Positions 11,775 to 63,885 of a stretch of 64,000 bases of DNA are shown one piece after another. The stretch covers positions 64,001 to 128,000 of the IMG/VR virus record IMGVR_UViG_3300043414_000372; one strand, 5' to 3'. Source of the stretch: a virus. Its lineage: Duplodnaviria; Caudoviricetes. Every line of letters starts with the position of its first letter. Position 1 is the stretch's first letter. The translations under genes and the position numbers were made by a program. The notes beneath the pieces are model-generated. The model did no database searches. It saw nothing but the letters and a program-made list of their open reading frames with translations, and had not been told where the DNA came from.

Positions 11775-13049
11775 TTATGCGCTTGCAATAGTTACGATTG
11801 CGTAAGGTTGACCGTTATCTGCATTAGCAACTGCTGCTGTATTGAATGTTGCAAATACCGGAGCAGCATTTTGGAACACGATATTACCAGTAGCAATTGG
11901 GCCTGAAGTAGCAGTAAACAACTCACCAGTGTGGTCAGAAAGACTTTGAACTGTTTGAGTAGCACTATTAGCATATGTAGCAAGAATACGCATTGTGTTT
12001 GGTGTCAGTGCTGTATTTGCAAGATTTGCTGTATAACATTGATTTGTTAAACCAGTTACTGTTCCTGTTACTAGATATTTTTGTTTACCTTTTTGACGTA
12101 CAATATATCCTGCTTCATCATTTGCATAGACAAATGCTGCATTGCTAAAAGCAATTGGGCAGTTAGCATTTAATACGACACGATTGTGAATTGCATTACC
12201 AGTAACACTTGCATTAGATGTAATAGCTTTTGGTGCACCACCCTGAGTAGCAGAAACAGTAAATGCAGTTGCATTAGCTACAGTTTTAACAAAATATGTT
12301 GTACCTGAAGTTAAACCACCAAATGATGCATCAAATGTTAACGGCATATCAAGTTCTAGCAGTTGTGCATTACCTGATGTTCTAATAACATTGCCTGTTG
12401 CTGTCGTATTAGCAACAGCTACAGTAATATTACCATGTGTTCCAGATGCGAAACCAATGTTGGTATAGTCTGTAGTTCCATTATTATTTGCAACAGCAAC
12501 CTGAAGTGCTGCACCTGTAGCTAAATTAGCTAAGTCAGTACCTACTCCAAATACGCTTGCATTGGTGTTAGCTGCCAAATAGCTATATAATGTACCTGTA
12601 CCATTAATACCAATAGCAACTTGTGCTAATACTTGTTTACCAATGATTGCTGTATTACCACCAACTACAGAATATGTGTTACTGTTCGTAGTTGGGAAAC
12701 CTGCACCACCAACTGGGTTGTTAAAATATGCATCGACTACTGCAACAGATGCTTTAACTGATTGAGCAGATGTAGTTGTTAGTGAAGCAAGAACACGAGG
12801 TTGTACACTTAATTGTGTTGTTGATACTGTAAATGTATGATTGCCTGTGATAGCGTTAATGTAATAAATTGTGTTAGCAACTAATCCACCAACTGTAGAA
12901 GCAACTACGAATGGCATACCAACTGCTACACCAACAGTTGGTTCTGTAGTTAGATTATCTGATACTGTTACATTAGCACCTGAGCCTGAACCAGTTGCTG
13001 TGATTGTTAAGACTGCTTGAGCCTTTGCGATTTTTAGAGGACGTCCCAT
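11775..13049 (-). CDS. Putative virion structural protein (T/A/N/G-rich, internal repeat)
   Basis: Beta-rich composition; repeated GGL..(N/G)T.Y..(N/K).....FTVS.TQ motif; late promoter at 13132-13138. Confidence 0.65.
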   Translation of the reverse strand: MGRPLKIAKAQAVLTITATGSGSGANVTVSDNLTTEPTVGVAVGMPFVVASTVGGLVANTIYYINAITGNHTFTVSTTQLSVQPRVLASLTTTSAQSVKASVAVVDAYFNNPVGGAGFPTTNSNTYSVVGGNTAIIGKQVLAQVAIGINGTGTLYSYLAANTNASVFGVGTDLANLATGAALQVAVANNNGTTDYTNIGFASGTHGNITVAVANTTATGNVIRTSGNAQLLELDMPLTFDASFGGLTSGTTYFVKTVANATAFTVSATQGGAPKAITSNASVTGNAIHNRVVLNANCPIAFSNAAFVYANDEAGYIVRQKGKQKYLVTGTVTGLTNQCYTANLANTALTPNTMRILATYANSATQTVQSLSDHTGELFTATSGPIATGNIVFQNAAPVFATFNTAAVANADNGQPYAIVTIASA

Positions 13050-13065
13050 TTTTTTCTCCTTGAAA

Positions 13066-13124
13066 TATTAGTGAGTTCTAGTCACTACGCGGCGGGGACC
13101 GCATAAACTCGCCGAATGCGAATG
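13066..13124 (-). ncRNA. Candidate structured 5' leader (pseudoknot plus hairpin)
   Basis: GC-rich island in an AT-rich genome between late promoter and RBS: CGCAT/ATGCG stem, CGGCG/CGCCG crossing pair, TAGTGA/TCACTA hairpin. Confidence 0.4.
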
Positions 13125-61763: not shown

Positions 61764-61912
61764 ACATTGTTGTTCTCACTCTTATTGTTATAATAAAAAA
61801 GAGCCTTGCGGCCCTTAGTACTGGTTACGAGTTCCAGCTTCCGCTCAATCTTGCGGTCGGTTATTTGTATTGTATTTAGTGTCTTGCATATGACAATAAT
61901 ATGACATATGGT

Positions 61913-61933
61913 TAAAGGGGCAGTGCCCCTTTA
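61913..61933 (-). terminator. Terminator after porin
   Basis: AAAGGGGC-ACT-GCCCCTTT. Confidence 0.6.
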
Positions 61934-61955
61934 TAATCAATGTGATTAGATTGGA

Positions 61956-62840
61956 TTAGAAATTGTGTTCCATACCCAATGCATACTTAGTAGTTGTTGC
62001 TGTTGCATCTTCTTTGATGTAACGAGCATGAACTGTTGTACGCTTGCTTAAACTATAGCTTGCGCCTAAGTCTAATGCTTTAGTAGTATTGTTCTCGCCA
62101 TAGCTAGCAAGTGCCATCAATGCTGAAGATACTGGTTGATTAACACCAATACTTTTACCAGTTGAAGTTACGCCTGCAACTTTGTCATCAGAATAAGTAG
62201 CGAAAACAGTTGTACCTGTTTTTTCAACCTTAACTCTTGCACCATAGATTGTTGAAGTACTTGTTGTACCGTTATCAAAACTTGCTACAGTAGCACTGAT
62301 TGGACCACGAGTAAATTCAATACTAGCAGCTTGCGGGTTATTAACGCCTGCTACTTCGCTATTGCTATTGATGTAGTTAACAGTTAAACCAGCCATTGGA
62401 GTAGCTGAAACGAACAACGCATTACTGAAACGTGAACCTTGAGCAGCGTGAATGACTGCGGTACTAGAACCGTATACATTACTCATTGCGTCATAGTTAT
62501 CAAGTGTACGTGCGATTGTGTGCTTGTCACGACCAACATTAACTGAACCTAAACTGTTTGACAAACCTACAATCATAGTTCTGTCGCCCAATGTAGTTGC
62601 TGCTGGAGCATCTGCACCGATACCAGTTTCAATTGTGAAGTTAGCAGATAGTCCGCCACCTAATGCTTCAGTACCTTTAAAACCCAAACGACTTGTATCG
62701 TTAGTGAGTGCTGTTACTGCTGACGCAGATCCAACTGTTACTGATTCTTCATACACACGCATTTTACCGTAAACGGCTACTTGTGCTGATGCTGCAAAAG
62801 ATACAGCGGCTAAAATTGTCGCAAGTGCGATTTTCTTCAT
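61956..62840 (-). CDS. Gram-negative outer-membrane porin (betaproteobacterial type)
   Basis: Signal peptide MKKIALATILAAVSFAASAQ, SRLGFKGTEALGGGLSA..T.E.G, amphipathic strands, YSLSKRT, C-terminal GMEHNF. Confidence 0.9.
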   Translation of the reverse strand: MKKIALATILAAVSFAASAQVAVYGKMRVYEESVTVGSASAVTALTNDTSRLGFKGTEALGGGLSANFTIETGIGADAPAATTLGDRTMIVGLSNSLGSVNVGRDKHTIARTLDNYDAMSNVYGSSTAVIHAAQGSRFSNALFVSATPMAGLTVNYINSNSEVAGVNNPQAASIEFTRGPISATVASFDNGTTSTSTIYGARVKVEKTGTTVFATYSDDKVAGVTSTGKSIGVNQPVSSALMALASYGENNTTKALDLGASYSLSKRTTVHARYIKEDATATTTKYALGMEHNF

Positions 62841-62972
62841 ATTAAATTTCCTTTAAAAAAAACCTGATTGCTCAGGCTAGATTAATATTTAGCGGGAGAA
62901 ATACAGTCAAATAAATTATGTATTCTCGCAAAGTAAGTATACTGATTGCGTAATGTATGCTAGTTGATAAAG

Positions 62973-62996
62973 GAAAAGACACCGAAGTGTCTTTTC
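62973..62996 (-). terminator. Terminator of tmRNA transcript
   Basis: GAAAAGACAC-TTCG-GTGTCTTTTC perfect 10 bp stem with cUUCGg loop. Confidence 0.75.
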
Positions 62997-63157
62997 TGGT
63001 TGTTTCTTTTATACAGTAAGTCCTACTGCACCTTAGCCTTAAGCGGCTAAAGAATATAACTCATCGTTTGCAGTTATTGATTTTATGCGATTAACGGTCG
63101 TCATCTACCGAGTTGCCGTCGCTGACTATTTGCCCAATCGATTACCAGAGCAGGCCC
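62997..63157 (-). ncRNA. ssrA: Two-piece (permuted) tmRNA, coding piece
   Basis: 5' end GGGCCTG at 63157 pairs with CAGGTCC-ACCA including G3-U70; tag frame 63071-63039 = ANDELYSLAA-stop; stop codon in the loop of TTAGCC/GGCTAA; 3' boundary approximate. Confidence 0.88.
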
Positions 63158-63240
63158 ATCATAAACACATAACAAGGGTTCCAGTTACGTCATTCTGTTT
63201 ACCACCGTCAAATGACGATACTGCACGGTCTATGTGTTTA

Positions 63241-63305
63241 TGGTGGACCTGGCCGGATTCGAACCGGCGTCTTGAACACATCCTCTTTGAAGGAATTACA
63301 ACTAT
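63241..63305 (-). ncRNA. ssrA: Two-piece (permuted) tmRNA, acceptor piece
   Basis: GTTCAAGAC-GCCGG-TTCGAAT-CCGGC-CAGGTCC-ACCA T-arm and encoded CCA, located upstream of the coding piece; 5' boundary approximate. Confidence 0.88.
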
Positions 63306-63310
63306 CTTTT

Positions 63311-63318
63311 TATTTATC
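63311..63318 (-). promoter_or_regulatory. Late promoter (GATAAATA) upstream of tmRNA
   Basis: Motif overlaps the stop of the upstream ORF, just before the acceptor piece. Confidence 0.55.
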
Positions 63319-63643
63319 GTTGATAGCAATTACGCTCACGGTAAATTTGACCATCAGGTTGTTGAATCTCTTTCCAAGAAGTACAAACTGTTTGCGGTTG
63401 CTGAATAATAACTTGCTCACGTTGAACAACAACTGGTTGTTGATTGGCATTAGCAATTGCTGCTCCTGCAATTCCGCCGATGATTAATGGGGCTATCCAA
63501 TCATTACGTTCAACAATAACTGTGCGAGGTTCCCAACGAGGTCCGCAATTGTGATGACGATGATCTATTCCCCAACGACAATCTTGGGCAAAAGCCATGG
63601 TACTGACCATTAATGTTACTGCAACCAAAAGTAATTTTTTCAT
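63314..63643 (-). CDS. Exported/membrane protein with glycine-zipper-like segment
   Basis: Signal peptide MKKLLLVAVTLMVSTMAFA; APLIIGGIAGAAIA; AGGAG RBS. Confidence 0.7.
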   Translation of the reverse strand: MKKLLLVAVTLMVSTMAFAQDCRWGIDHRHHNCGPRWEPRTVIVERNDWIAPLIIGGIAGAAIANANQQPVVVQREQVIIQQPQTVCTSWKEIQQPDGQIYRERNCYQR

Positions 63644-63693
63644 ATTTTATCTCCTATACATATATAACGTGCTAGATATGTATTTAGTTGACA

Positions 63694-63885
63694 TTATTGG
63701 ACAACTAGGTGTCCAGTAGCATACATGATTGCCATAACTGGACCAGCAATGTGTTCGCCAATTTCATATAGTGCCCATACTGTTAATGCGACTGCCCACC
63801 ATGGATTGGTTTCGGCTTTGTGCCCTAACCACATAAAGAATTTGGCATGTGCTTGCCCAATTTTGTTTGCGAGTTTAACTATCAT
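63694..63885 (-). CDS. Small membrane protein
   Basis: Hydrophobic WWAVALTVWALYEIGEHIAGPVMAIMYA. Confidence 0.6.
   Translation of the reverse strand: MIVKLANKIGQAHAKFFMWLGHKAETNPWWAVALTVWALYEIGEHIAGPVMAIMYATGHLVVQ

Follow-up and report, generated by a model that had tools for sequence, protein, structure and literature searches.

A probably functional two-piece tmRNA gene of betaproteobacterial type in a giant freshwater phage

Two-piece tmRNAs are already known from bacteriophages. Buchholz et al. 2022 (PMC9004378) found 53 of them in a set of 133 unique phage tmRNAs, and 50 of the 53 come from aquatic phages, in which two-piece forms dominate; the tmRNA database holds 79 phage sequences. 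The carriers named in that paper and its Table S1 include the OM43 phage Melnitz, the pelagimyophages HTVC008M and Mosig, and cyanomyophages (S-CRM01, S-CAM1 and others), and Table S1 also lists Caulobacter phiCbK-like phages and the CcrSC/CcrBL9 jumbo phages. This survey (53/133 two-piece, almost all aquatic) dates the premise of our initial annotation that phage tmRNAs are mostly one-piece, and it also means that a two-piece tmRNA in an aquatic phage is no novelty as such. For the betaproteobacterial two-piece tmRNA, which Rfam models as RF01850 (beta_tmRNA), the reference is Sharkady & Williams 2004 (ref. 74 in PMC9004378). Phage-borne RNAs derived from ssrA, carried without a phage smpB, also include the one-piece tmRNAs of the mycobacteriophage Bxz1 group and Bacillus phage G and the RNA of mycobacteriophage DS6A, which consists of the tRNA-like domain only (PMC4131195).

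The gene that we describe here shares with the Bxz1 group, phage G and DS6A the presence of an ssrA-derived RNA on a phage without its own smpB. Unlike those standard or truncated forms, which belong to phages of Gram-positive hosts, it is permuted and its tag frame is complete. It lies on the minus strand of a 64,000-nt window, the whole stretch of DNA that was analysed, which corresponds to bases 64001-128000 of a 229,851-bp IMG/VR virus record. CheckV puts the completeness of that record at 61%, implying a genome of about 380 kb. The GC content is even, at 37%. Among the proteins encoded in the window are a tail sheath of 1199 aa (phrog_10581, E 4e-201), another resembling a tail fibre and a structural protein of the virion; the nearest deposited relatives of the tail sheath are those of the jumbo phages PA5oct and Atu_ph07, at about 45% identity. 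Our preferred reading, to which we assign a probability of roughly 85% from the comparative sequence evidence, is that the gene is a functional circularly permuted ssrA of betaproteobacterial type carried by an uncultured freshwater jumbo myophage of about 380 kb.

The identification as a permuted tmRNA, first proposed from the sequence by eye, is borne out by two programs. ARAGORN reports a permuted tmRNA with the tag ANDELYSLAA at 62948-63333 (minus strand). This is its sole call in the window and across the full 229,851-bp record, which by the same program contains no tRNA genes. Rfam matches the locus to RF01850 at 137.1 bits (E 9.8e-42; curated gathering threshold 84 bits), with an alignment spanning all 331 model positions (1-331), and to RF04321 (tmRNA_permuted) at 126.3 bits (threshold 47 bits). 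Both calls are far beyond chance. Each element of the initial annotation was recovered at its place on the minus strand, including the acceptor stem with G3-U70, the helix 2a pairing, the ANDELYSLAA-UAA frame with its stop in a hairpin loop, the 83-nt spacer and the UUCG hairpin.

Read along the minus strand, on which all coordinates of the gene are given, the order is that of a permuted tmRNA: the T-arm and the 3' acceptor strand with its CCA come first, and the 5' acceptor strand and the tag frame follow downstream, after an intervening segment. The acceptor piece (63241-63305) comprises, according to the Rfam alignments, the helix 1 5' strand AGUUG, the helix 2a 5' strand UGUUCAA, a T-arm (GCCGG-UUCGAAU-CCGGC, with a GGUUCGAAUCC-type loop), CAGGUCC, the discriminator A and an encoded CCA; its 3' end at 63241 reads CAGGUCCACCA (CAGGUCC-A-CCA). 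We placed its 5' limit at 63305 from the boundary of homology with four related contigs (L009, L007, L014 and L015) and from the start expected of a late promoter. The intervening segment of 83 nt (63158-63240) is a non-coding hairpin with a closing stem of 11 bp (UAAACACAUAG / UUAUGUGUUUA), UGAU being unpaired before G1, and its fold in the window has an energy of -23.1 kcal/mol. No gene is present inside this spacer in the window, where its longest ORF has 13 codons.

The coding piece (62968-63157, aligned to RF01850 up to model position 331) begins with the acceptor 5' strand GGGCCUG (63157-63151), which forms seven of seven pairs with CAGGUCC and includes the G3-U70 alanine identity pair. 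There follow the D-loop analogue CUGGUAAUCGA, the helix strands, a hairpin, the tag frame and the 3' hairpins. Helix 2a pairs UGUUCAA (63278-63272) with UUGGGCA (63137-63131), and helix 1 is completed by the 3' strand GGCAACU. The tag frame (63039-63071; ARAGORN), preceded by UAACU, reads GCA AAC GAU GAG UUA UAU UCU UUA GCC GCU UAA, or ANDELYSLAA and stop, and the stop codon sits within the loop (6 nt) of a hairpin of 8 bp. The unit ends in a hairpin, GAAAAGACAC-UUCG-GUGUCUUUUC followed by CUUUAUC (62973-62996; Rfam and coordinates), which is a probable terminator. The terminator scan lists this hairpin on the plus strand only; the minus-strand tail is poor in U, with 4 T in 8, and falls just below the rule of the scan. 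The predicted transcribed unit is thus about 340 nt long, from about 63305 to about 62970, between the GATAAATA element and the UUCG hairpin.

Comparison with the bacterial model places the gene close to RF01850. The match is full-length and the helices are the same; the tag ANDELYSLAA is near the consensus of the model, ANDE-x-F-A-L/M-AA; the promoter element stands at the distance from helix 1 at which the -10 element stands in the bacterial genes; and a UCGG/UUCG hairpin closes the RNA in both cases. Several features set it apart from the model. The spacer is 83 nt long and closed by a stem (59-119 nt in the phage alleles), compared with about 40 nt in RF01850; the acceptor stem is GGGCCUG/CAGGUCC, where the consensus is GGGggUG/CAccUCC; the T-loop is UUCGAAU and not UUCGAUU; helices 1 and 2a are separated by a middle helix that pairs imperfectly (NC marks in the Rfam alignment); and a late-type promoter replaces TTGA...TATAAT.

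Among phage systems, the closest likeness is to the aquatic two-piece set of PMC9004378, with which the gene shares a permuted ssrA, a lytic-type aquatic phage, a T4 style of transcription and the lack of a phage SmpB; the role proposed there, sustaining the hijacked translation machinery, would be common to both. It differs from its counterpart in Melnitz, whose tmRNA is alpha-type, carries a glutamine riboswitch and follows an early promoter (PMC9004378), whereas the tmRNA described here is of beta type (RF01850), is preceded by the late-type GATAAATA only, has no riboswitch hit in Rfam and belongs to a PA5oct/Atu_ph07-like jumbo backbone. When the gene was compared by blastn with 50,697 deposited phage records, no match emerged. 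It adds a beta-type lineage to the two-piece tmRNAs of phages, of which alpha- and cyano-type examples were known; our current understanding of tmRNA itself is unchanged by it.

The 25-nt sequence spanning T-arm and acceptor strand occurs in 17 viral contigs, 16 of which were shown to have a permuted tmRNA; in the other, L011, it lies at the contig end. We aligned 16 alleles from related viral contigs with MAFFT and counted pairs on the helices derived from Rfam. The acceptor stem is canonical at seven of seven pairs in every allele, with G3-U invariant, and two of its pairs are flipped from GC to CG in L020 and L021. The T-arm likewise keeps five of five canonical pairs throughout, with GC/CG and GC/AU exchanges. 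Of the seven pairs of helix 2a, five are fully canonical and two have a single non-canonical pair each (15-16 of 16 alleles), and double changes are many. Helix 1 is more variable, its five pairs being canonical in 10-15 of the 16 alleles; its extension by 2 bp is weak, as is the middle helix. A hairpin, CGGU-loop-ACCG, lies at the position of the Rfam model and is canonical in only 10-11 of the 16 alleles of the MAFFT alignment; no clear pseudoknot pairing emerged between helix 2 and the resume codon. Compensatory changes of this kind across alleles point to selection on RNA structure, and not on DNA identity.

The spacer tells a similar story in spite of a sequence that is barely alignable and a length that varies from 59 to 119 nt. 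Compensatory changes allow 14 of the 16 alleles, folded alone, to form a stem of 9-13 bp from the spacer ends, with U(G/A)AU unpaired before G1. The spacers of L009 and L010 have end sequences identical to those of the window, yet fold otherwise when folded alone. In the precursor the spacer stem would extend the acceptor stem, as expected of a substrate for RNase P and the tRNA 3'-end enzymes.

Selection is also evident in the tag. The frame is complete in 15 of the 16 alleles, that of L010 being cut by the contig end. In 14 of these 15, it starts with A(A)ND or ATA and ends with (L/M/I)AA and a stop, and the same 14 have a GCN resume codon with UAA 2-3 nt before it; in L025 the tag ends in ANA and GAA stands upstream in place of UAA. 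L025 belongs to a syntenic trio of alleles (L023 1780-2140, L024 1509-1869 and L025 14-381) in which a non-canonical T-loop, GGCAGUG, replaces UUCGAAU; these have a 119-nt spacer, an extra insertion before the tag and lower Rfam scores, at 73-93 bits.

These features bear on the least improbable of the alternatives, in which the RNA acts as an SmpB decoy: its tRNA-like domain would soak up host SmpB and thereby block ribosome rescue or tagging in the host, as proposed for the DS6A RNA. In its favour, the records searched encode no SmpB, and inhibition of tmRNA by a DS6A-like molecule is cited in PMC4131195 and PMC11915505. A decoy would, however, need neither the complete tag frame of 15 of the 16 alleles, with its resume codon, its upstream UAA (GAA in L025) and its stop in a hairpin loop, nor the degron-like C-terminus found in 14 of 15. 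The retention of the tag frame argues for real trans-translation and against a DS6A-like decoy, which we regard as improbable. On these comparisons, the gene in the window is a real and conserved two-piece phage tmRNA that probably functions as such.

The initial annotation placed the gene under a late-type promoter. The element in question, GATAAATA (63311-63318, minus strand), overlaps the TAA stop of the upstream 109-aa ORF and matches the T4 consensus TATAAATA at seven of eight positions, differing in the first base. In the window and in L010, L019 and L020, its three nearest relatives, it stands 6-8 nt before helix 1 despite differing flanks. Across the genome, 20 of 28 copies of GATAAATA lie no more than 60 nt upstream of same-strand ORF starts. 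The shorter motif ATAAATA has 83 copies in the record, 43 of which lie no more than 80 nt ahead of an ORF start on the same strand; such 80-nt upstream segments make up 3.9% of the two-strand sequence. Its reverse complement is so placed in 8 of 83 cases, and the median for 7-mers of matched composition is 9.5%. The genes that ATAAATA precedes include those for the tail sheath, the tail-fibre-like protein and the virion protein, and the commonest base before it ahead of genes is G (20/43).

A factor that could read such promoters is encoded outside the window, at G000 196335-197186 (plus strand), by a gene for a gp55-family late sigma factor (phrog_12791, E 6.9e-74; phrog_234, E 4.4e-22; T4 gp55, E 7.5e-6), and homologues are also present in the L019 and L010 records. 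The protein has 313 aa compared with the 185 aa of T4 gp55, and its N-terminal half matches phrog_12791 only. A promoter scan found no sigma-70 site upstream of the tmRNA on the minus strand. A start 6-7 nt past GATAAATA would fall at about 63305, where the homology to L009, L007, L014 and L015 begins, and would also fit where the bacterial Rfam model has its -10 element. Taken together, the gp55 homologue, the directional enrichment of ATAAATA before genes and the lack of an upstream sigma-70 site lend indirect support to the promoter as first annotated, with a predicted start, and make GATAAATA a credible candidate for a gp55-type (T4-like) late promoter. Six lake metatranscriptome runs share 6-13% of the words of 61900-63700; in the four that were examined, all contigs fall on the upstream ORF, from 63290 upwards, and leave the tmRNA uncovered; being contigs, they are silent on expression.

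Late expression, as opposed to a late promoter in the window, does not extend to the whole family. In L014 (583-611, plus strand), whose acceptor piece is 98% identical to that of the window, and also in L015, the unit is preceded by a sigma-70 promoter, TTGACA-N17-TATACT, with an 11/12 match and AATAAATA in its spacer, which makes a dual early/late promoter possible in these two. The sigma-70-driven unit of L014 implies that late-only expression, where predicted, is specific to the sub-lineage of the window.

The distribution of similarity around the gene suggests that RNA and promoter have been exchanged separately. The flanking proteins of L019 and L020 are 93-99% identical to those of the window, and DNA homology to these two breaks off at 63331 and restarts at 62977; between these points their tmRNAs are only 63-79% (acceptor piece) and 69-73% (coding piece) identical to that of the window. 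Conversely, L009, L007, L014 and L015 have acceptor pieces 98% identical to that of the window, in flanks that are at most 60% identical or belong to a ribonucleotide-reductase neighbourhood. Homology to the window is confined to 63305-62994 in L009, L007 and L014 and to 63305-63061 in L015, and the breakpoints coincide with the promoter, the predicted start site and the terminator. Near-identical tmRNAs in distant phages and divergent alleles in close ones indicate that the transcribed unit moves as a cassette, with promoter and terminator exchanged separately. In five of the contigs (L002, L004, L006, L007 and L012), the tRNA-like domain lies a few kb from the nrdA/nrdB ribonucleotide reductase genes, and tags vary widely in this group (ATAITNEAYALAA, ANDESYRIAA, ANDEAFLMAA and ANAANDEVFALAA).

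A mosaic locus, with breakpoints at 63331/62977 and 63305/62994, is also what would be seen if the gene were kept as a stretch of DNA, either for its homology to host ssrA in the manner of an attP site or as a hotspot of module exchange among co-infecting phages, with any RNA function secondary. tmRNA genes are common integration targets, according to PMC4383910 and PMC11915505. The compensatory changes speak instead for selection on RNA structure, and no obvious host target presented itself: among one genome each of 185,579 bacterial species, the exact 25-mer was found in no tmRNA; its five occurrences are all in tRNA genes of Patescibacteria and Planctomycetota MAGs. A recombination or integration site in place of a working RNA gene is in our judgement less probable still than a decoy.

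It is tempting to speculate further that the tmRNA unit is a mobile cassette traded among freshwater giant phages independently of their backbones, re-wired to late-only or to sigma-70 plus late promoters, and propagated by phages as a lineage unseen as tmRNA in sequenced bacterial species, with allele and tag (LAA, MAA, IAA) tracking either the SmpB and protease set of the host or an arms race with host RNases. An exact-match scan misses near-identical host genes, so that its outcome is no more than suggestive of a phage-propagated lineage. We hold this wider proposal to be doubtful on the whole. If it were true, allele and tag would be determinants of host range or counter-defence, and not a passive copy of a host gene.

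That the gene is phage-borne, as first annotated, follows from the virus record, the tail sheath and virion proteins, and its recurrence in related phage contigs. Upstream lies the 109-aa ORF (63314-63643, minus strand), which has no Pfam or PHROG match; downstream lies a 294-aa porin homologue (61956-62840, minus strand; PF13609 Porin_4, E 2e-23). Both are syntenic with the tmRNA in relatives, and the slot between them is shared by at least nine other viral contigs from different samples (L010, L014, L015, L019-L021 and L023-L025). The recurrent slot and the phage genes make host contamination or mis-assembly very unlikely. Host DNA brought in by mis-assembly, or a recently captured passenger without phage function, could account for a gene of bacterial (beta) type on a metagenomic contig, but the recurrence of the slot in no fewer than nine related contigs, independent of one another and differing in sample, the phage-type promoter motifs at the gene, the lack of any bacterial genome with the 25-mer as tmRNA and the diversification of the alleles under structural constraint leave this the least probable of the explanations considered. 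The porin homologue is of Gram-negative type with a signal-like sequence at its N-terminus; nearly all of its 651 homologues come from contigs of freshwater metagenomes or of viruses, which suggests an outer-membrane porin that is widespread and carried by phages. The beta-type RNA, the beta-like tag and the Porin_4 neighbour hint weakly at a Gram-negative host of Burkholderiales type.

Phage tmRNAs normally rely on the SmpB of the host. We found no PF01668 match in the 230-kb record or in five related records, all of them fragments (11-69% complete), and since the record itself is 61% complete, a phage SmpB or other partners could sit in the missing part. The absence of SmpB is no argument against the identity of the tmRNA.

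The comparative data predict a primary transcript whose 83-nt stem-closed spacer is removed and whose tag is ANDELYSLAA, and they allow a mechanism to be proposed. Host RNA polymerase carrying the phage gp55-type late sigma factor would start 6-7 nt after GATAAATA, in which case the primary 5' end would be that of the acceptor piece. Host RNase P would cut before G1 and tRNA 3'-end enzymes would trim to CCA; the spacer would be discarded, and pairing in the acceptor stem, helix 2a and helix 1 would keep the two RNAs together. Charging by host AlaRS could then proceed via G3-U70, and host SmpB and EF-Tu would deliver the RNA to stalled ribosomes, where translation would resume at GCA and append (A)ANDELYSLAA, a degradation tag of the ClpXP/SspB type. 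As the phage would supply only the RNA, dependence on host SmpB is proposed. The likely benefit would be extra capacity for ribosome rescue during degradation of host mRNA and heavy late protein synthesis. The further idea of the initial annotation, that the RNA possibly replaces host ssrA cleaved or inactivated by defence nucleases, is a conjecture that draws no support from these results. On the proposed mechanism, giant phages of fresh water, too, put resources into ribosome rescue while relying on the SmpB of their hosts, and the separate exchange of RNA unit and promoter could be used to ask when in infection trans-translation helps the phage.

Two further elements lie in the window. At 62861-62878 (minus strand), between the terminator of the tmRNA and the start of the porin gene and about 20 nt before its AUG, there is a terminator-like hairpin followed by T8 (AGCCUGAGCAAUCAGGUU-UUUUUU). 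Farther away, the freshwater-2 motif of Rfam (RF02980) is matched at 13047-13123 (minus strand; 66.6 bits, cut-off 49.9), and the end of the matched segment coincides with the AUG of an ORF of 424 aa (11775-13049) with no Pfam match.
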